Below, in pieces: positions 8,273 to 63,627 of a stretch of DNA of 64,000 nt. Source of the stretch: Candidatus Limnocylindria bacterium (GTDB lineage Bacteria; Chloroflexota; Limnocylindria; QHBO01). Below the pieces are notes generated by a model, which was not told where the DNA came from, searched no databases, and worked only from the letters and a program-made list of their open reading frames with translations. Every line of letters starts with the position of its first letter. The first letter of the stretch is position 1. Position numbers and translations under genes: made by a program. Where the stretch lies: positions 22,993 to 86,992 of the forward strand of contig JBHENJ010000037.1 of the NCBI GenBank assembly GCA_046262115.1. The letters are read 5' to 3'.

Positions 8273-8337
8273 GTGCTCATCGGTCCTCCGATTCGGCAAC
8301 GAGAAGGCGGCGCGTTGGTGGAACGCGCCGCCTGCCG

Positions 8338-8440
8338 ATCGGTACCCGACTCCCTGCGCTGGCATTACCCAGATCAGGTGTGAGGGTCAGCGGAAGATCC
8401 GCACTCTCAGCGCTTGTCGCGCTCCCCTGTCGTCTTCAGT
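8338..8440 (-). promoter_or_regulatory. TPP (thiamine pyrophosphate) riboswitch
   Basis: Minus-strand read: ACAGGGGAGCGC...GCGCUGAGAGUGCGGAUCUUCCGCUGACCCUCACACCUGAUCUGGGUAAUGCCAGCGCAGGGAGUCGGG contains the CUGAGA, ACCCU, ACCUGAUCUGGGUAAUGCCAGCG and AGGGA hallmarks of the THI element. Confidence 0.85.
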
Positions 8441-12937: not shown

Positions 12938-14004
12938 CGCGCGTCGCGTACGTTGTCAGCGCCGCCGGCTCCGCGGTCGCGATCGTCCTTCGCGTGCTGA
13001 ACGCCGATGCGTCGCTGACCTTCGCCGTCGCCGCGTTCGCCATCCTCGGACTTGCGTACGTCCTCGGCCACGCCACCGAGCAGCTGGGCGCGGTGCTCGG
13101 GCCGCGCGCCGGCGGCGTGCTCAACGCGACCGTCGGCAACATCGGCGAGATCATCATCGCCGGCTTCCTGATCGCGGCGGGCGAGCTCGAGGTGGTGAAG
13201 GCCTCGATCACGGGCTCGATCATCGGCAACCTACTGCTGGTGCTCGGCCTCTCGCTGCTCGTCGGCGGGGTCCGCAACGGGATCCAGCGCTTCGACACGC
13301 GCCTGACCGGGATGAACGCCGCGTCGCTCATCCTCGCCACCATCGGCCTGGTCGTGCCCGCGACGTTCGCCCTGCTGATCGGCGGCGGCGCGGAGACGGG
13401 CGCGGACGAACGCCAGTTCTTTTCGATCGAGGCGCTCAGCGTTGGGGTCGCGGCGCTGCTCATCACCATCTATGGCCTCTCGCTGGTGTACCAGTTCCGC
13501 ACGCCGGGAGCGGCGCCTCCGGACGAGGCTGAGCATGCCGCGGCGTGGCCGTGGAGGCTCTCGCTCGCGGTGATGCTGGGCTCGGCCATCGTGCTCACGG
13601 CAGTCTCGGAGGTCCTGGTCCACACCATCGACCCGGTGGTCGAGACGCTCGGCATCAGCCGCTTCTTTCTCGGGATCATCTTGATCCCGTTCATCGGCAA
13701 CCTCGCCGAGCACGTCGTGGGGATCACGCTCGCCTACAAGAACAAGATGGACTTCAGCCTGTTGACCTCGATCGGCTCGTCCACCCAGATCGCGCTCTTC
13801 GCGGCGCCGGTGCTCGTCTTCTTCAGCCTCCTTATCGGCCAGCCGCTGACGCTCGTGTTTACGACCCTCGAAGTCGTGGCCGTCGCGGTCGGCACCTTCA
13901 TCGCCGCGTACATCGCGGTCGACGGTGAGTCGAACTGGCTCGAGGGGGCGCAGCTCGTCTCGGTCTACCTCATCCTGGCAATCGCCTTCTTCTTCCTGAC
14001 CTGA
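12934..14004 (+). CDS. Ca2+/H+ antiporter (CaCA/ChaA family)
   Basis: Two alpha-repeat motifs (GNIGEIIIAGF; GNLAEHVVGIT), ~11 TM. Confidence 0.85.
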   Translation: MTRVAYVVSAAGSAVAIVLRVLNADASLTFAVAAFAILGLAYVLGHATEQLGAVLGPRAGGVLNATVGNIGEIIIAGFLIAAGELEVVKASITGSIIGNLLLVLGLSLLVGGVRNGIQRFDTRLTGMNAASLILATIGLVVPATFALLIGGGAETGADERQFFSIEALSVGVAALLITIYGLSLVYQFRTPGAAPPDEAEHAAAWPWRLSLAVMLGSAIVLTAVSEVLVHTIDPVVETLGISRFFLGIILIPFIGNLAEHVVGITLAYKNKMDFSLLTSIGSSTQIALFAAPVLVFFSLLIGQPLTLVFTTLEVVAVAVGTFIAAYIAVDGESNWLEGAQLVSVYLILAIAFFFLT

Positions 14005-15029
14005 TGGACGATCGACCGATGGATGGGAGCGAGCGCCGCAAGCGCGATCGCCTGGCGCGTCTCCTGTCCGTTGTCTCGATCCTCTACACCGCCGCCGAGC
14101 GCGACGACGAGGGCGTCGCCGCGATCGAGATCGCGCGGCTCACCGGGATGAACGTGCGCACCGTGTACCGCGACCTGCGCGCGCTGGAGGAGGAGCTCGA
14201 CGTCCCGATCTTCTCGTCCGGCCGCGGCCGCTTCGGGATCGAGCGCAAGTTCTTCCTGCCACCGCTCCGGCTGACCGTGCCGGAGGCGATCGTGTTCTTC
14301 GTCGCGGCGCGGCTCATCACGCAATCCTCGGACGAGTACGACGCGGTCGTGGTCAGCGCGTTCATGAAACTCGCCGATGCGCTCCCGCAACCGATCGCGC
14401 GCCACATCGCGCAGACGATGCTGGCGATCGGCGAGCGGCGCCGGGACGAGGCGTTCACCAGCAATTTCGCCGCGGTCGCACGCGGCTGGGCCGAGGGGCG
14501 TGTCGTCGAGTTCACGTACGAGGGCGGGCACGAGCGGCGGGGCCCGCTCCGGCTGCGCCCGTACTTCATCGAGCCCTCAGCGGCCGGACGGAGCGTCTAC
14601 GTCATCGGCTTCGAGGAGACGAACGGCGGGATGCGGACGTACAAGATCGAGCGCATCCGCCAGGCAAGCGTCACTCTCGACCGATACGAGATACCCCTCG
14701 ACTTCGACGCGGACCGATGGCTTGCGCCGGCGTGGGGCATCTGGTCGGCGGACTCGACACCCCCAGTGACGGTGCGGCTCCGCTTCGATGCCGCAGTCGC
14801 GCGGCGAGTCCGCGAGTCCATCTGGCACCGATCGCAGCGACTGGTCGAGTTGCCGGACGGCCGGGTAGAGCTCCACATGGAAGTCGCAGGCACGGTCGAG
14901 GTGCGGCCGTGGATCCTGGGCTGGGGCGACTCGGTCGAGGTGCTCGAGCCGCCGGAGCTTCGCGCCGCGGTGGCGCAGGCGGTGGGCGCCGCGGCCGACC
15001 ACTATCGCGCCGGCGGGAACGGAGGCTAG
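14004..15029 (+). CDS. WYL-domain transcriptional regulator (HTH-WYL-WCX)
   Basis: N-terminal HTH (IARLTGMNVRTVYRDL), central WYL region (VVEFTYEGGHERRGPLRLRPY...), C-terminal WCX; TGATG overlap with antiporter gene. Confidence 0.8.
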   Translation: MDDRPMDGSERRKRDRLARLLSVVSILYTAAERDDEGVAAIEIARLTGMNVRTVYRDLRALEEELDVPIFSSGRGRFGIERKFFLPPLRLTVPEAIVFFVAARLITQSSDEYDAVVVSAFMKLADALPQPIARHIAQTMLAIGERRRDEAFTSNFAAVARGWAEGRVVEFTYEGGHERRGPLRLRPYFIEPSAAGRSVYVIGFEETNGGMRTYKIERIRQASVTLDRYEIPLDFDADRWLAPAWGIWSADSTPPVTVRLRFDAAVARRVRESIWHRSQRLVELPDGRVELHMEVAGTVEVRPWILGWGDSVEVLEPPELRAAVAQAVGAAADHYRAGGNGG

Positions 15030-18557: not shown

Positions 18558-19244
18558 TCAGAGCGGGAGCTTCTGGATGACGCTCAGCGTCGGCCGCACG
18601 GCGCGCGGCGCGGGCTGCGCGATCGGCAGACGGATCCACGCGTCGCCCGCCGGACCGGGCCGATAGCGCGCGGACAGGCGCCGCGCCGAGATCGCTTCCA
18701 TGCCGAGCTCTCCGAGCGCCTCGGCGACGGTCATGCCCTCCTCGCGGAACCCGCGGCCCACGATCGTGGTCTCGCCCCTGCGGACGAGCGCTCGAAGGCG
18801 GTCGCGGCGCTCGACGAACGGTCGGGACGCGAGCGTCTGGCCCTCGAGATAGAGCAGGTCCGTCGCGACGAATGCGGCGCGGCCGGCGGTGACGCCGCGG
18901 ACCGCCAGACGGCGGCGCAGGAGCTCCGGGTCGGGACGGCCGTCGCCGTCCAGCACGAGGAGCGTCCCATCCATGACCACCGCGTCGCCGCGAAGCTGCT
19001 CGCCCAGCGAGCCGAGCTCGGGGAAGCTTTCCAGGAGGTCGGTGAGCTGCTCGCTCTGGAGCCGGACCTGGCGAGACTCGACGAAGGGCAGGGCGCGCAC
19101 GCCAGGCCACCACGGCTCGAAGTAGTACCCCGGGTCATCGAACGGACCGACGCCATCGGTCGCCTGCATCGGTCGCACGTGGAGCGGCAGCCGGCCGCCC
19201 GAGTCGGGTGTGTCGATCGAGAGCGGAAGCTGCACGGCCCCCAC
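18558..19244 (-). CDS. ATP-dependent DNA ligase-fold protein lacking catalytic lysine (LigC/LigD-ligase-domain-like, probably inactive)
   Basis: Nucleotidyltransferase-domain homology (motifs III, IIIa, IV, V recognisable), but motif I KxDG reads EPWWPGVRAL and motif V Lys is Arg; no OB domain; 17 nt downstream of ku. Confidence 0.6.
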   Translation of the reverse strand: MGAVQLPLSIDTPDSGGRLPLHVRPMQATDGVGPFDDPGYYFEPWWPGVRALPFVESRQVRLQSEQLTDLLESFPELGSLGEQLRGDAVVMDGTLLVLDGDGRPDPELLRRRLAVRGVTAGRAAFVATDLLYLEGQTLASRPFVERRDRLRALVRRGETTIVGRGFREEGMTVAEALGELGMEAISARRLSARYRPGPAGDAWIRLPIAQPAPRAVRPTLSVIQKLPL

Positions 19245-19261
19245 CGTGGCTGACCGCCGGG

Positions 19262-20104
19262 TCAGGCGGTCTTGCGCGCCGCTCGCCGCTGGGTGGCGGG
19301 CTCCTCGCCCGCACCCTTCCGGCGCGACTCTCGTGCGGCCGCCACGCTCGCCTCGAGCGCCTGCATCAGGTCGGTGAGCTTGGTCGCCGGCGCGCGCTCG
19401 ACGCGTACGGGCGCCTGCCCCTCGACCTTGGCCTGGATGACGTTCATCAGCGCCTGCCGGTATTCGTCGTGGTACTGGTCGATCTGGAACTCGCCTGTCA
19501 TGGATTCCACGAGCTGCTCGGCCATCTTGCGCTCCGCCGGCTTGAACTCGTGCTCCTCCTCGGGAAGGTCCAGGTCGCGCACGGCACGGATCTCGTCCGG
19601 CCAGTGGAGCGTGGTGAGCAGGAGCGTCTTGTCGAACGGGTTGAGCGACGCCAGCTGCTCGCGATCCTTGAGGACGATCTTGGCGATCGCGGTCCTGCCG
19701 GTGTCATCGAGCACCGATTTCAGCAGGTAGAACGCCTTGCGGCCGATGGGCTCCGGCTCGAGGTAGTAGGCCTGCTTGACGAACTGCACGCCCTGCGTGT
19801 CGCGCCTGGCCTCGGTGAAGAGCTCGATATCGATGGCACGCATCGTCTTGAGCGGCAGCGAGTCGAGGTCCTCGTCGGTGACCACCACGTACTGGCCCTT
19901 CGACCACTCGTAGCCCTTCACCGTGTCGGTCCGGCTGATGACCTCGTCGTCGTACGGACAGTAGGTCTTCATCTGGATCCGGTTCAGACATTTGGCGTGC
20001 AGCATGTTGAAGCCGATGCCGCCGCTTTCGGTGGCGAGGTACAGCTTGACCGGGATCGTCACCAGCCCGAACTGGATCGCGCCCCGCCACATCGGACGTG
20101 CCAT
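19262..20104 (-). CDS. ku: Ku (NHEJ DNA end-binding protein)
   Basis: Canonical start MARPMWRGAIQFGLVTIPVKLY, Ku core and C-terminal basic tail. Confidence 0.9.
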   Translation of the reverse strand: MARPMWRGAIQFGLVTIPVKLYLATESGGIGFNMLHAKCLNRIQMKTYCPYDDEVISRTDTVKGYEWSKGQYVVVTDEDLDSLPLKTMRAIDIELFTEARRDTQGVQFVKQAYYLEPEPIGRKAFYLLKSVLDDTGRTAIAKIVLKDREQLASLNPFDKTLLLTTLHWPDEIRAVRDLDLPEEEHEFKPAERKMAEQLVESMTGEFQIDQYHDEYRQALMNVIQAKVEGQAPVRVERAPATKLTDLMQALEASVAAARESRRKGAGEEPATQRRAARKTA

Positions 20105-20295
20105 GGATCTCCTCGAAGTTCGTGATCGGGTGTGCCCTCCCCGATCGGCCGCAAGACGATACGCCAAACAAGCAAGCCCTTGATGGCATTTCCATGCTCG
20201 CACGGCTGATGCCTGCGGGCAACGATCTTCAGTACCAGCCGCACCGGACGCTGCGGCCATTGTTCGGGCATACCGAAACGACGAGATTCCCGCCG

Positions 20296-20706
20296 ATGGA
20301 ACACGCGCACCTGCCCGTCGCCCAGCGGGCATACGTCCTCGAGGACGAGCCCGCGATCGCCGCGATGGAGGCCGACCTTCTTCGCGAGATGGGGTTCTCG
20401 GTCGTCACCTGCAGCCGGATCGTCGAGCTTGGCGACCTGATCGAGCTGTCACTGCCACACCTACTGATCGTCGACCTGAACCTGCCGGACGGCGACGGCG
20501 ATCAGGTGGCTCGGCTGCTCGCCCACGAGTGGCCGGGCATCCCGGTCGTGTTCGTGAGCGGGGCGCGACGCGAGCGCCTCTACCCGTTGCGCGAGCTCGG
20601 CCCGGTAGTCCAGAAGCCGTTCGACCTCGATGACTTCACCAGCGCGGTGCAGGAGGCGCTCGATCACCCGTACGCCGCGCGGCTCGGTCTCGCGTCAGGA
20701 GGCTGA
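20296..20706 (+). CDS. single-domain response regulator (CheY-like receiver)
   Basis: Receiver motifs (VLEDEP, LLIVDLNLPDGDG, KPFD); start at MEHAHL inferred. Confidence 0.65.
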   Translation: MEHAHLPVAQRAYVLEDEPAIAAMEADLLREMGFSVVTCSRIVELGDLIELSLPHLLIVDLNLPDGDGDQVARLLAHEWPGIPVVFVSGARRERLYPLRELGPVVQKPFDLDDFTSAVQEALDHPYAARLGLASGG

Positions 20707-20713
20707 GCGCCGG

Positions 20714-21199
20714 CTAAATCACCCGGTCGCCTTCCGGTCCCGTGACCGCGACGAGCGCCGACGCCACCTCGCCACCGGCGCGGCTCAGTCGGTATCGGTG
20801 CTCGATCTCGAGCGCCTTCGACAGCATCCTGCTCACCGGGCAGTACTTCATCGCGGAGAGTTCGACCGCGCGACGCACCGCTTCCGCCTCGATCTCGCCT
20901 TCGACCTGGTGCTCGACGACGATGTGGAGGAAGACTGACGGGGTCTCGTCCGCCTTCTGAGCGGTGATCGCGACGCCGTAGCGTGCCGGCGCCTGTCGTT
21001 TCTTGCCGAGGATGCTGACCACGTCGACCGCGGTGCACGACGCGAGGGCGGCGAGCACGAGCTCGGTCGGGCGCGCGGCGCTGTCGCCGCCGGTGGGCGG
21101 GAGCACGTCGGCAACGACCTCGTGACCCGACGCGGTGCGTGACTGGACGCGCGCGCCGCCGTCGAGCGAGACACTCGCCTCGAGCCGGACCTCAGCCAT
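20714..21199 (-). CDS. OsmC/Ohr family peroxiredoxin-like protein
   Basis: OsmC fold signature (ELVLAALASCTAVD... AMKYCPVS). Confidence 0.8.
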   Translation of the reverse strand: MAEVRLEASVSLDGGARVQSRTASGHEVVADVLPPTGGDSAARPTELVLAALASCTAVDVVSILGKKRQAPARYGVAITAQKADETPSVFLHIVVEHQVEGEIEAEAVRRAVELSAMKYCPVSRMLSKALEIEHRYRLSRAGGEVASALVAVTGPEGDRVI

Positions 21200-22916
21200 C
21201 AGCCGCGATCGTATCCTCGCGGATCCCCTTCGTCGCACCGGCGACGCCCTCGGCCAGCAGCACGCGCCCCCCGGCCAGGGACTCGTACAACGCCTCGACG
21301 CGCTCGAGCGTGTCGATCTCGTCGGGCGTCTTGTCGTCGCGAATGCGCACGATGCGCGGAAAACGCATCGCGAAGCCGCTCTTGTGGCGGTTGCTGCGCT
21401 GGATCAGGTCGAAGGCGATCTCGACGACGACCTCCGGCGCGACGCTGCGGAAGCGCCCGAAGTCACGGATCGTGATCGCCTGGAAGTGCTCGGTGTACGC
21501 AGTGATCTCCGCATCTGTCAGCCCGGTGTAGGCCTTGCCTATCGTGACGAGCCGGTCGTTGGCGGTGTCCCGCACGGCGAACGTGTAGTCGGAGAGCACC
21601 GCCCGCCGCTTGCCGTGGCCCCATTCCACGCCGACCACCACACAGTCCAGGGTTGCGAGCGCGCGCTTCAGCTTCAGCCAGCCGAGCCCGCGGCGCCCTG
21701 GCTGATACACCGACGACGGGTTCTTGATCATCAGCCCCTCGTTGCGCCGGGCCTGCGCGTCGTCGAACAACCGGTCGACCTCCTCCGCCGAGCGCGCCTG
21801 GACGAGGTGCGTGTAGAGCAGCCGCTCGCCGCTGCACTCCGGGAGCTCGAGCGCCTCCAGGGCAGCCCGGCGTTCTCTCAGCGGCTCGTCCAGCAGGTCG
21901 CGTCCGTCGAGGTGCAGCACGTCGAACGCCACGAAGACGACCGGTATCCGCTCCTGGAGCGCGGCGTCCGGCGCGACGCGTCCAAGCCGCTGCTGGAGGT
22001 CCTTGAACGAAAGCGCCGCACCTTCGCGGTATGCGAGCAGCTCACCGTCCAGAACGATCTCGCGGCCGAGCGCGGCTCCCGCGGCTGCTGCCTCGGGGAA
22101 TGAGCGCGTCACCTCCTTGAGATCTCGACTGAAGAGGCTCGCCCGTCCGGCGGCGGCGTGCAGTTGGGCACGCACGCCGTCGTACTTGTCCTCGACCCAC
22201 GCCTCGGCGCCGACACGCCGCATGACCTCGTCCGCATCCTCGACCGGCGAGGCGAGCATGAACCGGAGCGGCCTGCCGAGCTGGAGCCGCGCCTCGTCGA
22301 GCCGCCCGGCGCGGGCAAACGTCGCGGCGACACCGATGTCGCCGACGACCATCACCGCCCGCCGGAGCTCGTCGAGCGCCACGTCGAACGCGGCCGCCAC
22401 GGCCTCCTCCAGCAGCCCCTCGCGCAGCCCGATGCGCAGGTCGCGCTGGAGGATCTTGGCGATGTAGCGCGCCTCGCCTCCGCTCGCCCGGCCGAACAGC
22501 GTCGCGAGGCGCGCCGCGCGCTGCTCCCCGCTCGACGACCGCGATATCTCCTCAAAGGCGTCGTGCACGTCCGCCAGTGTCAGCGGCCGCGAGTCCGGCG
22601 TCCGACCCTCCAGGAGCTCGCCGGCCACGTCGCCCAGATCCGAGTGGCGGAGGTAGCTGTCGCCGAATCGTTCGACGTCGACGCCGGCGAGCCCGGTCAG
22701 CGCCGCCGACACCTGGACCCAGCCCAGCCCGAGCCGGTCATCGGCGCCCGGAAGCGGCCTCCCTGCCAGGAAGGTGCAGGCGATCCGCAGGTCCTCGTCG
22801 CGAAGAGCACGGAGGTAGTCGGCCAGGACCGCGCGCTTGCGGAGCTTGCTGGTCGTCGCGGCGGCCGCATCGGCCGCAACCACGAAGTCGGCGAGGGCGG
22901 CCGATCGGGCGGTCAC
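21192..22916 (-). CDS. ligB: ATP-dependent DNA ligase (LigB/Lig I type: DBD-NTase-OB)
   Basis: Motif I EDKYDGVRAQ, motif V/VI present, 574 aa. Confidence 0.85.
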   Translation of the reverse strand: MTARSAALADFVVAADAAAATTSKLRKRAVLADYLRALRDEDLRIACTFLAGRPLPGADDRLGLGWVQVSAALTGLAGVDVERFGDSYLRHSDLGDVAGELLEGRTPDSRPLTLADVHDAFEEISRSSSGEQRAARLATLFGRASGGEARYIAKILQRDLRIGLREGLLEEAVAAAFDVALDELRRAVMVVGDIGVAATFARAGRLDEARLQLGRPLRFMLASPVEDADEVMRRVGAEAWVEDKYDGVRAQLHAAAGRASLFSRDLKEVTRSFPEAAAAGAALGREIVLDGELLAYREGAALSFKDLQQRLGRVAPDAALQERIPVVFVAFDVLHLDGRDLLDEPLRERRAALEALELPECSGERLLYTHLVQARSAEEVDRLFDDAQARRNEGLMIKNPSSVYQPGRRGLGWLKLKRALATLDCVVVGVEWGHGKRRAVLSDYTFAVRDTANDRLVTIGKAYTGLTDAEITAYTEHFQAITIRDFGRFRSVAPEVVVEIAFDLIQRSNRHKSGFAMRFPRIVRIRDDKTPDEIDTLERVEALYESLAGGRVLLAEGVAGATKGIREDTIAADG

Positions 22917-23861: not shown

Positions 23862-23938
23862 GCCCCCATCGTCTAGAGGCCCAGGACGCCACCCTTTCAA
23901 GGTGGAGATCAGGGGTTCGAATCCCCTTGGGGGCACCA
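23862..23938 (+). tRNA. tRNA-Glu (anticodon UUC), CCA encoded
   Basis: Cloverleaf: acceptor GCCCCCA/TGGGGGC, anticodon stem CCACC/GGTGG, loop CTTTCAA, T-loop TTCGAAT, 3' ACCA. Confidence 0.9.
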
Positions 23939-35516: not shown

Positions 35517-35591
35517 TGGAGCCGAAGGTGGGATTCGAACCCACGACCGACGGTTTACGAAACCGTTGCTCTACCCCTGAGCTACTTCGGC
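35517..35591 (-). tRNA. tRNA-Thr (anticodon CGU)
   Basis: Minus-strand cloverleaf GCCGAAG...TTCGTAA loop...GTGGGTTCGAATCCCAC...CTTCGGC-T-CCA. Confidence 0.85.
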
Positions 35592-42192: not shown

Positions 42193-42732
42193 TCAGTCGC
42201 TCCGCGGCAGAGCCTCCTGCCCGGCGAGGACGAGATAGTTGCGCCACGGGTCGTTGTGCTCGTCTGCGAGGTACGACCCGAACAGGTAGGCGTGGTCGGC
42301 GCGCGGCACGCGCGGCTCGCGGAGGAGCTTCATGCGCGCGTCAGACAGCGTCTTGGACCCCTTCCGGTGGTTGCACACCCGACAGGCCGCGACCAGGTTG
42401 TCCCAGTCATGCCGCCCACCGCGATGCTTGGGCACGACGTGGTCAAGCGTGAGGTCGCGCGTCGATTGCCCGCAGTACTGGCAGGTGTGCCGGTCGCGGG
42501 TGAAGACCTCGCGGCGCGTGAGACGGACGCGCGGGCGGGGCCGCTTCACCAGGTAGACCAGGCGGATGACCGAGGGCGCGTGGAGGCTGCGCGACGGCGT
42601 GTGGATGATCAGGTGGTTGAGCTCGAGCACCTCGGCCTTCTCCGCGCCGAGCAGATTGAACGCACGGCGGATGTCGCACACGTTGAGTGGCTCGTAATTC
42701 GAGTTGAGCACTAGTACCGGTGCGTTCGTCAC
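42193..42732 (-). CDS. HNH endonuclease family protein
   Basis: CQYCG...LDHVVP...H...[11 protein letters not shown]/zinc motif. Confidence 0.7.
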
Positions 42733-56710: not shown

Positions 56711-59167
56711 ATGACGTTCGGCTCGACCAACGGTCACGGCCCCGGCGGCCCCGGCGGCCCCGGCGGACCCGGCGGACCCGGCGGCGACGGAGTGGGCGCG
56801 CGCGAGGGCGACGGCGTCCACGCCACGCGATCGGTCGTCGACGAGTACACGCCCCTGTGGCCGATGGTCCCGGGCACGAAGCCACTTGCCGTCACCCTGA
56901 ACGGCGCGGAGGTGCTCGCCGAGGAAGGGCAGACGATCCTCCAGCTCTGCCGCGTGCAGAACGTGGAGATCCCTACGCTGTGCTACGAGCCCAAGCTCGC
57001 GCCGTACGGCGCGTGCCGCATCTGCGTCGTCGAGGTCGAGGGCGCCGCCGGAACGCCGATCTCCTGCGGCACCCAGGTCGAGGAGGGGATGGTCATCACC
57101 ACCCACTCCGACCGCGTGCTCGAGAACAGGCGCATGGTCCTGGAGCTCATCTTCAGCGACCACGACGCGTACTGCCTGCCGCCGTGCCAGTTCAAGTGCC
57201 CGACCCGCGTCGACATCCCGGGCTACCTGAAGCAGAACACGCTGGGCAACTGGGAAGAGGCAACGCGCATCCTCAAGCGCTCCCTGCCGTTCCCCGCGAT
57301 CCTGGGCCGTGTCTGCCCCGCGCCGTGCGAGACGCACTGCCGGCGCGAGGAGGTGGACACGCCGATCGCGATCCGCGACAGCCACCGGTATTGCGCGGAC
57401 CGCGTGCTCGAGGTCGACGCCCCGGCGCCGATCCCGTGGCCCAAGGAGCCGCCGAGCGGCAAGCGGGTGGCAGTCATCGGCGCCGGACCGGCGGGACTGG
57501 CAAACGCCTACTACCTCCAGCTGCGCGGCCACCAGTGCGACGTCTACGAGGCCGATCCGGAGCAGGGCGGCATGCTGCGCTACGGCATCCCGCAGTACCG
57601 GCTGCCCAAGGGCTGGATGGACCGCGAGCTGAACCACGTCTGGGAGCTGGGCGCGACGTTCCACCCGAACATGCGGCTGGGCCGCGACTTCCACCTCGCC
57701 GATCTGAAGGCCCAGGGCTACGACGCGATCTACGTGAGCATCGGCTGCTACAAGCCCAACGAGCTGGGCATCCCGGGCGAGGACGCCGACGGCGTCATCA
57801 ACGCGCTCGAGAACCTCTACAACTCGACGCGCGGCATCCCGATCCCGCGGCTGCGCGACTCGCGGATCGTGGTCATCGGCGGCGGGTTCACGGCGATCGA
57901 CTGCACGCGGACCAGCATCCGCCAGGGCGCCGCCGAGGTGAACCTCGTCTACCGCCGCGACCTGAAGGACATGCCGGCGCAGGACGAGGTGCACGAGGCG
58001 ATCGAGGAGGGGGCGCGGGTCATCTTCCAGGCCGCGCCGACGCGGATCATCACCGACGAGCGCAATCGCGTCACCGGCATGGAGTTCCAGCGCATGAAGC
58101 TGGGCGAACCCGATGAGAAGGGCCGCCGCCGCCCGACGCCCATGGCGGGCACCGAGTTCGTGATCGAATGCGACGTGGTACTGGGAGCCATCGGTCAGGG
58201 ACCCGAGCTGTCATGGATCGAGAGCGAGCCGGAAGAGATCCGCAACGGCCTCACGGTGAGCCGGCGCAACACCCTCGAGTCCGAGGAGGACACCTTCCGC
58301 ACCGGGGTCGACGGCATCTTCGTCTCGGGCGACGTGCGGACCGGGTCGGCGACCGTGGTCGAGGCCATCGGGGAGGCGCGGCGCGCCTCGTACGCCATGG
58401 ACTACTGGCTGCGCGGCCACGACCTGGACGATCCGCAGGTGCGCCGCATCGTCGCCGAGCCGCAGCCGCAGTTCCTGACCATCGTGCCCTTCACGGACGA
58501 CGTGAAGGAGCCGCGCGCGATCATGGGCAAGCTGGGCGCCGAGGACCGCAAGACGAACTTCGGCGAGTACGAGCACGGCTACACCCACGACCAGGCGATG
58601 GCCGAGGCGGGCCGATGTCTCCAGTGCACCTGCGAGGCCATCGGCCACTGCGACCTCCGCGAGGCGGCGATCGAATACGAGACGACGCTCAACATGGCGA
58701 TCGACGAGCGCTCGATCCAGGACAACCCGTACGTCGGGGTCAACCACGGCTACGGCCGGGACGAGACGCACTCCTTCATCCTGCGCGACTACTCGCGCTG
58801 CATCGACTGCGGCCGATGCGCGCAGGTCTGCAAGGACATCGTGGGCGCCGGCTGTTACGACTTCATCCGCAAGGGCTTCGACTCACTGGTCACGACGGCC
58901 GATGAGGTCTCGCTCAACGAGACCCCGTGCGTCTCATGCGGCCGGTGCGCGGAGACGTGTCCGGTCGGCGCGCTCATGCCGCGGCCGCGGATCCTGGAGA
59001 CGTATCAGCTCGACGTCGCGCGCTGCATCTTCTGCGGCATCTGCGCCGATGCCTGCCCGTACGACGCCCTGCGCTGCGGGCCGGAGTTCGAGTTCAGCGA
59101 GTACCAGCGCGACCTGCCGATGCTCGACATCCTGGAGATGTCCGACCGGGAGCGGCCAACGCGCTGA
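56711..59167 (+). CDS. mosaic redox protein: NuoG-type 2Fe-2S N-terminus + GltD-like NAD(P)H/FAD oxidoreductase + NuoG/NuoI-like 4Fe-4S ferredoxin C-terminus
   Basis: LCYEPKLAPYGACRICVVEV (2Fe-2S); GltD-like Cys clusters, VAVIGAGPAGL and GGGFTAIDC dinucleotide motifs; C-terminal CIDCGRCAQVC, CVSCGRCAETCP, CIFCGICADACP motifs. Confidence 0.75.
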   Translation: MTFGSTNGHGPGGPGGPGGPGGPGGDGVGAREGDGVHATRSVVDEYTPLWPMVPGTKPLAVTLNGAEVLAEEGQTILQLCRVQNVEIPTLCYEPKLAPYGACRICVVEVEGAAGTPISCGTQVEEGMVITTHSDRVLENRRMVLELIFSDHDAYCLPPCQFKCPTRVDIPGYLKQNTLGNWEEATRILKRSLPFPAILGRVCPAPCETHCRREEVDTPIAIRDSHRYCADRVLEVDAPAPIPWPKEPPSGKRVAVIGAGPAGLANAYYLQLRGHQCDVYEADPEQGGMLRYGIPQYRLPKGWMDRELNHVWELGATFHPNMRLGRDFHLADLKAQGYDAIYVSIGCYKPNELGIPGEDADGVINALENLYNSTRGIPIPRLRDSRIVVIGGGFTAIDCTRTSIRQGAAEVNLVYRRDLKDMPAQDEVHEAIEEGARVIFQAAPTRIITDERNRVTGMEFQRMKLGEPDEKGRRRPTPMAGTEFVIECDVVLGAIGQGPELSWIESEPEEIRNGLTVSRRNTLESEEDTFRTGVDGIFVSGDVRTGSATVVEAIGEARRASYAMDYWLRGHDLDDPQVRRIVAEPQPQFLTIVPFTDDVKEPRAIMGKLGAEDRKTNFGEYEHGYTHDQAMAEAGRCLQCTCEAIGHCDLREAAIEYETTLNMAIDERSIQDNPYVGVNHGYGRDETHSFILRDYSRCIDCGRCAQVCKDIVGAGCYDFIRKGFDSLVTTADEVSLNETPCVSCGRCAETCPVGALMPRPRILETYQLDVARCIFCGICADACPYDALRCGPEFEFSEYQRDLPMLDILEMSDRERPTR

Positions 59168-59211
59168 TCTCCGGACCGAACGGCCTTGGCGGATCGGCGG
59201 CTCTCGTCCGC

Positions 59212-59240
59212 GACACCGGATTCGCGGCGCGAATCGGGTG
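59212..59240 (+). terminator. GC-rich hairpin after the 818-aa gene (candidate terminator)
   Basis: ccggattcgcg-gc-gcgaatcggg near-perfect inverted repeat; no clear U-tract. Confidence 0.3.
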
Positions 59241-59264
59241 GTGAAGTGCACGTCCTGCGGCCGA

Positions 59265-59484
59265 GGCGTATTCGTCCGGTGAATGTATCGGTCAATCCTC
59301 GGGCCTCAATCGTCCTTTGGTTGGCCGTCGACGCTCACCGTAGTCGCCTGACGCATGGCGTGATCACGAATGGCCCGTCCGATCCGGCATCGAAGGACGT
59401 CGTTGTCCGATAGATCCGTCGGGCGAATACCGACCCCCTGCGGCGCGTCGACCGTTGCACCGCATTCGTCGGCCGAATCCGATG
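59265..59484 (+). repeat. ~220-bp noncoding repeat element, copy A
   Basis: ~75-80% identical to 61391..61609 in direct orientation with conserved blocks GGTGAATGTATCGG, GAATGGmCCGTCCGA, TTGTCCGATAsATCCGTCGGGCGAATAC, CCGAATCCG; 5' block and internal block are mutually complementary (long-range stem). Confidence 0.55.
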
Positions 59485-59530
59485 GGCGGCGGCGGCCGTG
59501 GATGTGCGACTTGCGACGGTAACGTGGCTC

Positions 59531-60505
59531 GTGAAAGCGATCGTTCGGTCGGAGTACGGGACGCCTGACATCCTCCGGCTCGAGGAGATCCCAACCCCCG
59601 AGCCCGGTGACGGTGAGGTGCTGGTCAGAATCCGGGCGTCATCGGTCAACCGAACGGATCTGGAGTCACTCGCGGGCAGACCGCTGGTGTATCGGGCGTT
59701 CATGGGGCTGCGCAGGCCTCGCAACGGACGGCTTGGGCTGGACGCCGCGGGCGAAGTCGAGGCGGTCGGGCCGGGCGTGGAGCGCTTCAAGCCGGGCGAC
59801 AAGGTGTTCGCGGATCTGCTCTACCACGGGATGTGCGCCTTCGCGGAGTACGCCTGCGCGCGGGAGAAGGCGTGGCGCCCGATCCCTGACGGCGTCGACT
59901 TCGAGACGGCGGCGACGCTGCCGGCGTCGGCGGTGCTCGCGCTCCAGGGACTCGGCGGCCGCGACGGCGTCCGCGCGGGCGAGCGGGTTCTCATCATCGG
60001 CGCCTCCGGGTCGGTCGGGATCTTCGCGGTGCAACTTGCGAAGGCAGCCGGGGCGCACGTGACCGGCGTGTCGAGCGCCGGGAAGTTCGATCTCGTCCGC
60101 TCCATCGGTGCCGACGACGTCATCGACTACGCCCGCGAGAACTACACGCGCGGCGACCGACGCTACGACCGCATCCTCGATGCCGTCGCGATGCACTCCG
60201 TTTTCTCGGTGCGCCGCGCCCTGACCGCTGGCGGCGTCTACGGCGCCCACGGCGGTCGGTCGAGCGGCGGCCTCCTCCAGGCGATGGCGCTCGGGCCTTT
60301 GCTCTCCGTGGGGCGCAAGCGGCGGATCGGGGTCGTGATGGGCAGACCGAACGACGCCGCGGACCTCGCGACCGTGGGCGAGATGGTGCGGGCGGGCACG
60401 CTGGTCCCGCTGATCGATCGCACCTTCACGCTCGCTGGGGTGCCCGAGGCGTTGCGCATCTATGCAGCGGGTGAGGCGCGCGGCAAGCTCGTGATCAGGA
60501 TCTGA
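59531..60505 (+). CDS. zinc-type alcohol dehydrogenase/quinone oxidoreductase (MDR family)
   Basis: MKAIVRSEYG start (GTG), GxGxxG (GASGSVGIFAVQLAK); listed start 59498 extends into repeat A. Confidence 0.8.
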   Translation: MKAIVRSEYGTPDILRLEEIPTPEPGDGEVLVRIRASSVNRTDLESLAGRPLVYRAFMGLRRPRNGRLGLDAAGEVEAVGPGVERFKPGDKVFADLLYHGMCAFAEYACAREKAWRPIPDGVDFETAATLPASAVLALQGLGGRDGVRAGERVLIIGASGSVGIFAVQLAKAAGAHVTGVSSAGKFDLVRSIGADDVIDYARENYTRGDRRYDRILDAVAMHSVFSVRRALTAGGVYGAHGGRSSGGLLQAMALGPLLSVGRKRRIGVVMGRPNDAADLATVGEMVRAGTLVPLIDRTFTLAGVPEALRIYAAGEARGKLVIRI

Positions 60506-60532
60506 CGGGCGCCAAAGTCCAAGGAGGCCGAT

Positions 60533-60946
60533 GTGGAGATCCGACCGAAGCCGCCGTCCAGGAAGGGCGGCTCCGACATGTTCATCGGCGACGTCTGGAT
60601 CGACCAGATCACCGGGGGCGAGGGCGGCTCGCGCATCCGGGTCAACGTCGTGCGCTTCGCACCCGGCGCGCGCAACGCCTGGCACGCGCACGCGCTCGGT
60701 CAGACGCTACACGTGACCGAGGGCCTCGGGCGGACCCAGGCGCGCGGCGGCGACGTCATCGAGATCCGGCCCGGCGACACGATCTATACCGCGCCGCGCG
60801 AGTGGCACTGGCACGGGGCTGGGCCCGACCACTTCATGACCCACGTCGCGATCTGGGAGGCGCCCGCGGAAGGGCCCGAGACCGAGTTCGCCGAGCAGGT
60901 TACGGACGCCGAGTACGACGCCGAGGGTGCGGATCGCGGCCGGTAA
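60533..60946 (+). CDS. cupin-domain protein
   Basis: AAGGAGG RBS; cupin motifs (NAWHAHALGQTLHVTEG, GDTIYTAPREWHWHGA). Confidence 0.7.
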   Translation: MEIRPKPPSRKGGSDMFIGDVWIDQITGGEGGSRIRVNVVRFAPGARNAWHAHALGQTLHVTEGLGRTQARGGDVIEIRPGDTIYTAPREWHWHGAGPDHFMTHVAIWEAPAEGPETEFAEQVTDAEYDAEGADRGR

Positions 60947-60966
60947 CCGACCGTGTACGGCCTCGG

Positions 60967-61332
60967 CTACATCGCTTCCGTCATCGGGCTCATGAGCTGG
61001 AAGTAGTTGCCGTCGGGATCGCTGAACGTGGCGATCAGGAACTCCGGCGGACCACCGGGGTTGTAGGGCTCGCGGACGACGGTCGCGCCGGCGGCGACGA
61101 ATCGGTCGAAATCGGCCTTGACGTCCTCGCTCTCGATGTTCCAGATCAGGCGGCCCGGCTGCGGATTCTTGCCGGTGACCTCATCGTGCGCGCCGATGCT
61201 GATGAAGCCGTTGCCGAGCTGCCACCCGGTGTACGCGCTGTCCTCGAAGCCCGGCTTGCCGAGGACCCTTGTGTAGAACTCCGTCAGGGCCTTTGGGTTC
61301 TCGGAGCCGATCAGGATGCTGTTGAAGTTCAC
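60967..61332 (-). CDS. VOC/glyoxalase-family protein
   Basis: AAAGGAGGAG RBS 5 nt before GTG (MNFNSILIG...); listed longer N-terminus rejected. Confidence 0.75.
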   Translation of the reverse strand: MNFNSILIGSENPKALTEFYTRVLGKPGFEDSAYTGWQLGNGFISIGAHDEVTGKNPQPGRLIWNIESEDVKADFDRFVAAGATVVREPYNPGGPPEFLIATFSDPDGNYFQLMSPMTEAM

Positions 61333-61390
61333 GCTCTCCTCCTTTGACGCTAGTCGGCGATGGATGACCGATCCGTATCGATCGGCGTCG

Positions 61391-61609
61391 GCGCGTTCGT
61401 GCGGTGAATGTATCGGCCATTCTTCGGTCGCGATCGGTACGTAGATCGCCGCCCGACGCGCACCGCAGTCGCTCGGTGCATGCCTTGACGCTGAATGGAC
61501 CGTCCGAGCCACACGGCGACGATCTACTTGTCCGATACATCCGTCGGGCGAATACGGATCGGCGACCGAGCTTTGACCGTTTCACCGTATTCACCAGCCG
61601 AATCCGGTG
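61391..61609 (+). repeat. ~220-bp noncoding repeat element, copy B
   Basis: Direct repeat of 59265..59484; here the 5' GAATGTATCGG and downstream CCGATACATCC are perfectly complementary. Confidence 0.55.
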
Positions 61610-61645
61610 CTAGCGAGGTCCGCCTGGCGACCTGGATCCGCGTCG

Positions 61646-62157
61646 TCACGACGTTGGCGGCACCTCGATGACGCGGCCATTCGCGACGCCGAAGTCCCAG
61701 ACATCGATGTCGGGCGGCTCAACGCCGAGCGCCGTGAGCGCAGTGCAGATCTGGCTCCGATGATCGCTGCCGTGATGCAGCGCCTGCGCGAGCCGGATGC
61801 CGATCGGCGCGTCTCTCTGATACCCGTCGTCCTCGTCGACCTCGCGCACGACGGCGTCGGGATCGAGGCCCTCTGCCAGGAACCGCGACCAAGCGGCGCC
61901 GTTGCGCTCCATGACGCCCCGGAGCTCGGCAAGGCCCATGCGCTCGTCGTCGATGGCGTGGGTCCGATCGCCAGTCAGATAGAACAGGTACCCGGCGTCG
62001 CCGCCGATGAAGTGGCGCTGCGTGTCGAGGATCGAGCCGTAGGTCCCGGGCACGACGCTGTCGAGCTGCTCCGGCTCAGCTCGACGCACGCATCGATCAA
62101 ACGCAGCGTCGCCCACACGTGGTGGGCGAACGCGTCTGCCATCAGGGATCTGCTCAT
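61646..62157 (-). pseudogene. DinB_2-family protein with apparent -1 frameshift
   Basis: N-terminus (MADAFAHHVWATLRLIDACVELS) in one frame, remainder (AEPEQLDSVVPG...HHGSDHRSQI...) in another; switch around 62075-62085. Confidence 0.5.
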
Positions 62158-62167
62158 CTCGTCCGCG

Positions 62168-62908
62168 ACTATAGCGACGAGCGAAGACGCGTCCGCGGCA
62201 GCCGATCAGCCCTTCTCGAGCACCTCCCGAGCTCCAGCAGCCGATCGCGCCAGTAGGCCTTCATCCGGTCGGCCGTCGACTCATCGGGAAGCCACTCGTG
62301 CCCGATCGTGACCACCGTCTTCGCGTCGCCCTTGGCGGTGAAGTAGACGACGACGATCGATGTCGGGTCGTCCCAGTCGAAGCGGACCGATGTTGCCGAT
62401 TTCGTCGGCCGCTGTCGCAGTGAGACGCCCGCGAGCCAGAGGCCCGCTGCGCCGCATCGGTGAAGGCGGCGAACGCACGGTCCGCCGACGCGTTGATCGT
62501 GCGGTTGACCGTGATCGTGAACCCGGTCGCCATCTGTCCCTTGGCGCGGAGGCCCCGTGCTCGCTCATAGCCGACGGTGACGCTTTGCGCCCACCAGCCG
62601 TCGACGCCGTGCTCCTCGCGCAGCCAGTGCGCGATCTCCGGGTGGCGACGTTCCGTGCCACCCCACTCGTCGAGGAGGCCGAACCAATCGGTCCAGCCCC
62701 TGCCGGTCGCGCTGCGGATGGCTTCATCGGTCGTCGGCATCTCGACGGCGGACTCGGCCGGCGCAACGGCCGGCGCCGATGTCTCTCCCGACGCTCCGGC
62801 GCCTGCATCGGCTCGGCGGATCAGCTGGGCCCGAGCCGCGGTGTACGACTCGCCGGTCTTCTCGGAGCGCGCGCGGACGCGGCGCTTGAAGGTCTTCTGC
62901 GTGGGCAT
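62168..62908 (-). pseudogene. DUF4287-like N-domain + SRPBCC/AHSA1-like C-domain protein with apparent frameshift
   Basis: Frame 1 reads MPTQKTFKRRV...TITVNRTINASADRAFAAFTDAAQ then low-complexity; SRPBCC-like continuation (SVRFDWDDPTSIVVVYFTAKGDAKTVVTIGHEWLPDEST...) is in another frame; 3' end uncertain. Confidence 0.4.
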
Positions 62909-63099
62909 GATTCGCTTCCTTCCCGCGACGGCGCTCCGGACTCACGCTCCCTTGCTCCGTCGAGAGAGGGCGAAACACGTCCCGGGGAAGCGAGTTCCCC
63001 TTTTCCCGCGAGGCCGATGGCGTGAGCACCGGATTCGGGGTTCGGCTGGGAGACGCCGTTGCGCGAGAGTCTAGCGCGCAGTCACAGTCGAATGGAAGA

Positions 63100-63627
63100 C
63101 CGATGCTCGACGTCACCATCCGCCCCGAACGCCCGGGCGAGGCCGATGCGGTCCGCGCCGTCAACGACGCTGCCTTCGGCGAGCCCGTCGAGGGCCGCAT
63201 CGTCGACGACATCCGTGGCACGGACCGATGGATCGACGGCGGGTCGCTCGTCGCGGAGGACGCCAGTGGCCGCATCGTGGGCCACCTCCTGCTCAGCGAA
63301 GGCGACCTCGAGACCGATTCCGGCGCGGCGCGCCGGATCTGGATGCTCGGCCCGGTGGCGGTGCTCCCCGCGGTGCAGCGGCGGGGCGTCGGCGCGGCGC
63401 TGATGCGCGCGGCGATCGAGCTCGCGACTTCACGCGGACAGCCGCTGATCTGTCTGCTCGGCCACGCCAGCTACTACCCACGGTTCGGCTTCGAGCCGGC
63501 GCGAGAAATCGGCATCCAACCGCCGCGACCGTGGCGCGACGCGAACTGGATGGCGCTGCGCCTCCCCGCCTGGACGCCGGATCTCCGCGGCGCCGCCCGC
63601 TACCCCTCCGCGTTCCCCGACGACTGA
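63100..63627 (+). CDS. GNAT family N-acetyltransferase
   Basis: Acetyl-CoA motif (VQRRGVGAALMRAAIE); start at MLDVTIRPE. Confidence 0.75.
   Translation, partial: PMLDVTIRPERPGEADAVRAVNDAAFGEPVEGRIVDDIRGTDRWIDGGSLVAEDASGRIVGHLLLSEGDLETDSGAARRIWMLGPVAVLPAVQRRGVGAALMRAAIELATSRGQPLICLLGHASYYPRFGFEPAREIGIQPPRPWRDANWMALRLPAWTPDLRGAARYPSAFPDD

Follow-up and report, generated by a model that had tools for sequence, protein, structure and literature searches.

The 64,000-nt stretch of a Candidatus Limnocylindria genome analyzed here (the window; coordinates are 1-based within it) carries two copies, A and B, of a noncoding, imperfectly palindromic intergenic element, both of which lie in an island of accessory genes interrupting the nuo operon. 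The island begins behind an oxidoreductase gene, the last of a nuoA-B-...-H-E-F block, which we refer to as the anchor gene. This gene is followed by copy A, by genes for a zinc-dependent alcohol dehydrogenase/quinone oxidoreductase-like protein (ADH), a cupin and a VOC/glyoxalase protein, by copy B, and by a DinB-family gene, with DUF4287 and GNAT genes further on. Gene identities were taken from Pfam annotation of the 48 genes of the window, which bore out the assignments made for the three genes between the copies in an earlier note based on the DNA letters and their open reading frames; the strand layout given there was also correct, copy A being flanked by two plus-strand genes and copy B by two minus-strand genes.

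The two copies were aligned by repeat search, MAFFT, and base-by-base comparison. Copy A at 59265-59484 matches copy B at 61390-61609 in direct (+/+) orientation, free of gaps and at a constant offset of 2125, with 154 of 220 positions (70%) identical. Both sites of the direct repeat proposed earlier were thus recovered, with the start of copy B at 61390, but the identity of 75 to 80% claimed for them was too high, since only the 3' 82 nt reach 79%. Outside the limits of the repeat, identity was 20 to 35%, which is chance level, and the two longest motifs shared by the copies were found in the 64 kb only at copies A and B (chance expectation, 0.00 to 0.06). The conserved blocks described in the earlier note were just marginally more clustered than expected from a uniform identity of 70% (longest run of identical positions, 17 [P = 0.11]; four runs of 10 or more [P = 0.05]). 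The G+C content of the element was 62%, versus a window mean of 70.6%.

Copy A reaches approximately 53 nt further upstream than the earlier coordinates, to 59212. A profile of the copy pair also matched the minus strand from 59296 to 59213 (nhmmer, E = 6e-6), and the covariance model matched copy A on the reverse strand with 36 bits (E = 5.5e-8); it follows that copy A forms an imperfect palindrome of 275 bp, in which an 84-nt left arm is the inverted copy of an 84-nt right arm around a 107-nt center. The arms of copy A form 51 Watson-Crick and 8 G.T pairs over 84 positions, compared to 38 ± 1.6 pairs, with a maximum of 42, in Markov shuffles of the spacer. Copy B retains the right arm, the center, and the inner 34 nt of the left arm, whereas the outer left arm is absent and the corresponding register holds 17 Watson-Crick pairs in 50 positions, no more than expected by chance. 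Pairing of the left arm of copy A with the right arm of copy B gave 27 Watson-Crick and 3 G.T pairs (30 of 34), which is above the self-pairing of either copy and is what would be predicted if a formerly better palindrome had decayed independently in the two copies.

The decay of the arms is uncompensated. In the 34-bp inner stem, a comparison limited to the two sequences A and B, we counted no compensatory substitutions, four that break a pair, two that make one, and one change from a Watson-Crick to a G.T pair. Three G.T pairs were present in this stem on the plus strand and two on the minus strand, and this absence of a strand preference is as DNA-level symmetry predicts. Two short complementarities had been singled out in the earlier note. 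That of GAATGTATCGG with CCGATACATCC, described as perfect in copy B and as having one mismatch in copy A, in fact comprises 10 of 11 pairs in copy B (with one A.C mismatch) and 9 of 11 in copy A; that of GTATTCG with CGAATAC is perfect in copy A, but copy B reads GCGTTCG.

Smaller palindromes are nested within the arms. Each arm consists of an outer 27-nt palindrome, CACCGGATTCG-N5-CGAATCCGGTG, and, 50 bp further in, an inner ATTCG-N5-YGAAT motif. All six matches to ATTCG-N5-CGAAT (with up to one mismatch) in the 64 kb were located inside the two copies, where 1.5 matches were expected in the window. The 27-nt palindrome occurred three times in the window, in all cases within the two elements, and was not found in any of 98 related loci (1.43 Mb from approximately 85 related Candidatus Limnocylindria genomes). 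The hairpin predicted for the outer left palindrome of copy A (P1) had a free energy of -18.8 kcal/mol (z = -2.9), and the hairpin of the outer palindrome of copy B (P4B) lies, on the transcribed (minus) strand, 36 nt past the stop codon of the DinB-like gene. A third exact outer half-site, AGCACCGGATTCGG, was observed at 63025-63038 in the spacer between the DUF4287 and GNAT genes, where 14 nt match the outer end of copy B. This half-site, at the distal end of the segment that the window has in excess of related locus L089, was nonsignificant by profile search (E = 3.5) and could be the relic of a third copy.

The element is noncoding. A hidden small open reading frame was rejected, as the mismatches between the copies were distributed 21/24/21 over the codon positions, without codon periodicity. 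No frame was open in both copies over the whole 220 nt, and the sole shared open stretch, of approximately 50 codons on the minus strand, was Arg rich, out of frame, and without codon-level constraint. A known RNA family was ruled out by two Rfam scans: at gathering thresholds, only a thiamine pyrophosphate (TPP) riboswitch and two tRNAs were found in the whole window, all outside the element, and a permissive scan (E ≤ 10) of 59100-61750 yielded nothing credible. The riboswitch is located at 8334-8438 (-) (RF00059; 68 bits, E = 3e-11) and the tRNA genes at 23862-23935 (+) (65.8 bits) and 35520-35591 (-) (73.5 bits).

We compared the locus with orthologous sites in the related-locus set, 80 loci of which (L001 to L080) had been gathered via the anchor gene and represent 80 Limnocylindria species. 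The anchor protein was 83 to 90% identical in these 80 species, and the ADH, cupin, VOC, DinB-like, DUF4287, and GNAT genes were absent from all 80 loci. The distance from the anchor stop codon to nuoJ ranged from 81 bp to 6.7 kb across the 80 representatives and was 8.2 kb in L091; the site of the copies is therefore a hotspot of accessory genes that splits the nuo operon. The gene content of the island was wholly different between genomes (ADH, GNAT, APH, AlkZ-like, MFS, and sigma factor genes, among others).

Orthologues of ADH (79 to 84% identical) were found behind the same upstream gene (806 to 823 aa) in L089, L090, L091, and L097, which makes ADH the ancestral occupant of this position. 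The spacer between these two genes was 48, 48, 167, and 239 nt long, respectively, versus 363 nt in the window. The spacers of the relatives were mutually unrelated, save for approximately 12 nt before the ADH start, and the element was absent from all four as well as from the DNA upstream of ADH in L098, in which ADH is preceded by a different upstream region. The filling of this hypervariable spacer by copy A is thus specific to the lineage. The GNAT gene comes directly behind ADH in L089, at a distance of 17 nt, and 2.6 kb further on in the window, where the cupin and VOC genes, copy B, and the DinB-family and DUF4287 genes intervene. The DNA extra relative to L089 thus extends from the cupin to the DUF4287 gene (approximately 60506-63102), with copy B in the middle of this segment and not at its edge. 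The closest orthologue of VOC (83%; L092) had other neighbors, a plain 35-nt leader, and no element, whereas in the window 57 nt separate the VOC start codon (61332) from copy B, the left edge of which is at 61390. The idea that the copies are a recombination scar bounding an acquired ADH-cupin-VOC cassette fails, because such a bracket encloses ADH, which is ancestral, and ends inside the extra DNA.

Taken with the noncoding nature, the inverted arms, and the absence from orthologous sites, these results are compatible with a lineage-private, low-copy, imperfectly palindromic intergenic repeat of the kind represented by miniature inverted-repeat transposable elements (MITEs) such as ERIC and Correia, now in decay; we favor this reading and put its chances at about even. 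The ancestral unit was approximately 275 bp long, with two inverted 84-nt arms around the 107-nt center, and would have entered, or been copied into, two spacers of the accessory island interrupting the nuo operon. Its mobility would have depended on a transposase recognizing the arms. The copies have since diverged by 30% through uncompensated single-sided substitutions, with loss of the outer left arm from copy B. Read-through from the upstream gene may carry transcription over both copies, from the anchor gene to ADH over copy A and from the DinB-like gene to VOC over copy B, and by symmetry both transcripts would start on the same well-preserved arm, with its 27-nt hairpin 36 to 46 nt past the upstream stop codon. 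If the element has a present function, the most likely residual effect would be that of an RNA hairpin at the 3' end, acting as a transcript-end stabilizer, weak terminator, or insulator, rather than that of a specific switch.

We took the criteria for MITEs, repetitive extragenic palindromes (REPs), and the terminal inverted repeats (TIRs) of TIRtrons from a single source (PMC3733652). MITEs are described there as sequences of 70 to 300 bp with TIRs and without coding capacity that fold when transcribed, and long imperfect palindromes among them include ERIC/IRU of enterobacteria, Correia/NEMIS of Neisseria, and RUP of Streptococcus pneumoniae (PMC3733652). For the present element, the size, the lack of coding capacity, the TIRs (in copy A), and the presence or absence at orthologous sites correspond to this description. 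Like ERIC, Correia, and RUP, it is noncoding, falls within 70 to 300 bp, has inverted arms, occupies intergenic spacers within transcription units or at their ends, in either orientation to transcription, varies in presence between related genomes, and is expected to form a hairpin upon transcription. Unlike these families, it is represented by two diverged copies (70%), has arms of 84 nt instead of 15 to 30 bp, and has no identified target-site duplication or related transposase; it also shows no sequence similarity to them (collection scans and plasmid and phage searches). The MITE-like candidate put forward in the earlier note is thus supported by the noncoding nature of the element, its length of 220 to 275 bp, its long inverted arms, its occurrence in either orientation, and its absence at the sites of relatives, but not by the copy number of two, the lack of a convincing target-site duplication, or the lack of a cognate transposase in the window.

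Features of REPs, BIMEs, and TIRtron TIRs were also recognized. Among the TIRs of TIRtrons, some are described as self-complementary or "double palindromic," and dimers of them occur (Di Nocera et al. 2013, PMC3733652). Similarly, the outer 27-nt palindromes of the element are found 36 to 46 nt downstream of stop codons, and its palindromic units are inverted into a larger foldable structure. However, a REP is a palindrome of 20 to 40 bp, one end of which bears an unpaired tag, GTAG or CGTC (PMC3733652), and no such tag abuts the stems here, CGTC being 5 to 8 nt off in two of the three palindromes and absent at P4B. The GGGGWSAS motif of TIRtron TIRs was likewise absent, three 27-nt palindromes in 64 kb do not amount to a high copy number, and the window encodes neither a RAYT (IS200/IS605-like Y1 transposase) nor a TIRYT. 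The element adds a new, private example to the broad class of intergenic palindromic repeats, and its classification within that class is uncertain because just two copies are available.

Several results weigh against a MITE-like origin. The copies are only 2.1 kb apart and are the only two in the 64 kb; active MITE families are normally multicopy and near-identical. The count of two refers to the window of the source genome, in the other 62 kb of which no third copy was detected with the nhmmer whole-element profile, the nhmmer arm-only profile, or the covariance model. The related loci, searched separately with the same three profiles, yielded no match in 1.43 Mb. An exact scan for a 22-nt core with one position open returned no match in the genome collection and none in the metagenome collection, and a degenerate 19-base arm core returned none in viral contigs and eight in metagenomes, all of which were chance matches that did not extend. 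The sole candidate for a target-site duplication is a low-complexity CGGCGGC at 59195 and 59487, which is placed asymmetrically (10 nt outside the left arm and abutting the right arm) and has no counterpart at copy B. The 84-nt arms are far longer than the 15 to 30 bp typical of MITE TIRs, and no transposase, integrase, or recombinase is encoded among the 48 genes of the window. Finally, the empty sites are not sequence clean, as the spacers of the relatives consist of unrelated filler, and an insertion is consequently not distinguishable from a replacement of the spacer.

Plasmid and phage records, searched with blastn in distant mode, also gave no match, and an inverted-repeat scorer applied to island versus core DNA had no discriminating power (coding background, 14 to 19; copy A, 20). 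In the data searched (the 64-kb window, the related loci, and the public collections), the element thus appears to be private to this lineage. Its signature sequences, for matching to the flanks of transposase genes, are CACCGGATTCG-N5-CGAATCCGGTG and GTATTCGNCCGNNGNATNTATCGGNCAA.

The main rival is a plain local segmental duplication, in which a palindromic, terminator-like spacer would have been copied 2.1 kb away by the illegitimate recombination that assembled the patchwork island, after which both copies drifted; we consider this unlikely but a serious contender. An element unique to two sites and without structural covariation, the outcome that the earlier note had named as speaking against its own proposal, is what we found in all data reached. 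Two copies only, close together and in direct orientation, with no target-site duplication and no transposase found in the window, are in keeping with such a duplication, as are the status of the island as a rearrangement hotspot (81 bp to 8.2 kb from the anchor gene to nuoJ), the completely different anchor-ADH spacers of the relatives, and the presence of Ku and LigD genes in the genome. The DinB-like gene, the closest non-self homologue of which is 77% identical, also fits in, as its product is shorter at the N terminus than all 170-aa homologues, by approximately 24 residues; the gene is probably 5' truncated at a rearrangement breakpoint, and the loss is consistent with patchwork rearrangement. 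What a local duplication leaves unexplained is a palindrome with 84-nt arms and nested palindromes, and the copying of a complete spacer-sized unit with no adjacent coding DNA and with chance identity beyond both edges.

The nested motifs raise the prospect of an array of protein-binding sites on double-stranded DNA, which we regard as improbable. ATTCG-N5-CGAAT palindromes, four in copy A and three in copy B with spacings of 50, 144, and 50 bp, would act as the operators of a dimeric regulator or as subsites of a res/cer-like recombination site, and directly oriented sites could excise the intervening DNA. The motif is indeed palindromic and element specific (six of six window matches, as given above), the copies are in direct orientation, and conservation of the arms apparently concerns their sequence and not their pairing. 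Conservation between the copies was higher at motif positions (approximately 40 of 45) than elsewhere (approximately 114 of 175), a post hoc comparison in that the motif was noticed in conserved blocks. However, no regulator gene was found near the element, and neither a regulator nor a recombinase gene for such sites was found anywhere in the window; ADH and VOC orthologues elsewhere do without these sites. Furthermore, with 5 bp between them, the half-sites are closely spaced for core sites of tyrosine recombinases, and the 107-nt center is also approximately 60 to 65% conserved, which operators do not require.

A structured RNA, either a plus-strand small RNA (sRNA) gene or a cis-acting leader or attenuator, is in our view quite improbable. 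Long-range complementarity and local hairpins are present, the G+C content is below the window average, and copy A is located within the ADH leader. The proposal of a cis-regulatory or sRNA family made in the earlier note was nevertheless not upheld. No Rfam match was obtained even at E ≤ 10. The copies are oppositely oriented to their downstream genes, copy A being sense to ADH and copy B antisense to VOC, and hence have no fixed orientation upstream of a gene. None of the orthologues examined (five of ADH and one of VOC) was preceded by the element, the inner stem of which contains no compensatory substitution despite 30% divergence. Folds of the element had weak minimum free energy z-scores (-2.5 to +0.2), RNAalifold returned unrelated structures on the two strands, and the covariance model found no relatives. 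No sigma-70-like promoter or intrinsic terminator was detected in 59000-61800, although the consensus used may not fit promoters of Chloroflexota.

Structural recombination sites resembling integron attC sites, which would mark where modules join in a system that captures cassettes at the nuo hotspot, are very unlikely. As in attC arrays and clusters of attC sites lacking an integrase (CALIN), imperfect palindromes in the same orientation lie between the modules of a variable array; the anchor-ADH junction is fully variable between relatives, the VOC-DinB junction is not conserved in L092, a third exact CACCGGATTCG occurs at 63027 at the DUF4287-GNAT junction, and island content varies highly across species. 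Against this stand the lack of an encoded integrase in the window, the lack of RYYYAAC or GTTRRRY (R''/R') cores (the arm ends read ...GGTCAA / TTGTCCG... and CACCGG... / ...CCGATG), a size of 165 to 275 bp that exceeds that of typical attC sites, the mixed gene orientations, the ADH-cupin (27 nt) and cupin-VOC (20 nt) junctions without any site, and the nonsignificance of the match at 63027 taken alone (E = 3.5). A broader form of this idea, in which the palindromes would serve an integrase-independent or distantly encoded shuffling of cassettes, with module junctions marked by copy A, copy B, and the CACCGGATTCG relic at 63027 and with ATTCG-N5-CGAAT providing protein-recognition subsites, is highly doubtful; palindromes that act as island-building recombination sites would be the sole high-value outcome of this analysis, and an unlikely one.

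The positions of the element, its parts, and the neighboring genes are listed in Table 1.

Table 1. Parts of the palindromic element and neighboring genes in the window
Feature	Position	Strand	Basis or remark
Copy A, full-length palindromic element, 275 bp	59212..59486	+	nhmmer, covariance model, arm pairing
Copy A left arm, 84 nt	59212..59295	+	Arm hidden Markov model, E = 7e-22; outer 53 nt beyond earlier coordinates
Copy A center, 107 nt, not self-complementary	59296..59402	+	Gap-free to 61421-61527, ~60-65% identity
Copy A right arm, 84 nt	59403..59486	+	Alignment, arm pairing
Copy B, ~220 bp, homologous to 59265-59486 of copy A	61390..61611	+	Covariance model, 264 bits
Copy B right arm, best-preserved arm	61528..61611	+	Arm hidden Markov model, E = 5.7e-25
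P1, outer 27-nt palindrome, CACCGGATTCG-N5-CGAATCGGGTG	59214..59240		46 nt past anchor stop codon
P2, inner left, ATTCG-N5-TGAAT	59270..59284		Motif search
P3, inner right, ATCCG-N5-CGAAT	59414..59428		Motif search
P4A, outer right 27-nt palindrome, degenerate, 9/11 per half-site	59458..59484		Weak hairpin, z = -0.6 to -1.1
P4B, outer 27-nt palindrome of copy B	61583..61609		Hairpin z = -3.2 (+), -2.0 (-)
Anchor gene, 818-aa Fe-S/FAD oxidoreductase, last of nuoA-B-...-H-E-F block	56711..59167	+	Pfam
Zinc-dependent ADH/quinone oxidoreductase-like gene	59531..60505	+	Pfam
Cupin gene	60533..60946	+	Pfam
VOC/glyoxalase gene, 121 aa, GGAGGA ribosome-binding site	60967..61332	-	Pfam
DinB-family gene, C terminus intact, ~24 N-terminal residues missing	61646..62116	-	Comparison with 170-aa homologues

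Some further observations concern the neighboring genes and the wider window. The N terminus of the anchor protein (56711-56830, +) contains a low-complexity GPGGPGGPGGPGGPGG tract and is variable, with many relatives aligning only from residue 24 to 45 onward. A three-copy 49-nt direct repeat at 58783-59056 (+) in the same gene corresponds to the CxxCxxCxxxC 4Fe-4S motifs of its C-terminal ferredoxin domains. In the public annotation, ADH is 335 aa long and starts at a GTG at 59498; its orthologues are all 324 aa long, with a start equivalent to 59531 (M/V-KAIV...), and the annotated gene is probably 11 codons too long. A GGTRACGTG-like motif 5 to 7 nt upstream of the start at 59531 is the sole part of the spacer that is conserved across ADH orthologues. 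Elsewhere in the window, the minus strand at 18561-22916 carries a nonhomologous end-joining set made up of a Ku gene and two genes for ATP-dependent DNA ligases, with an OsmC-like gene lying between these; further genes that we noted encode an HNH endonuclease (42196-42732, -) and a regulator with a WYL/WCX domain (14004-15026, +).

A decaying MITE-like repeat is an ordinary kind of feature and would leave general concepts unchanged; the splitting of the nuo operon by a variable island is arguably the more interesting biology. Candidatus Limnocylindria is an abundant, uncultured soil class of Chloroflexota, and our literature search found no paper on repeats in it. If the MITE-like reading is true, the element would be the first palindromic repeat family described in this class. 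It would then be of use in annotation, where such spacers would not be mistaken for riboswitches or sRNAs, and in strain tracking, and it would provide a small marker of how the nuo-operon hotspot gains and loses accessory detoxification genes.

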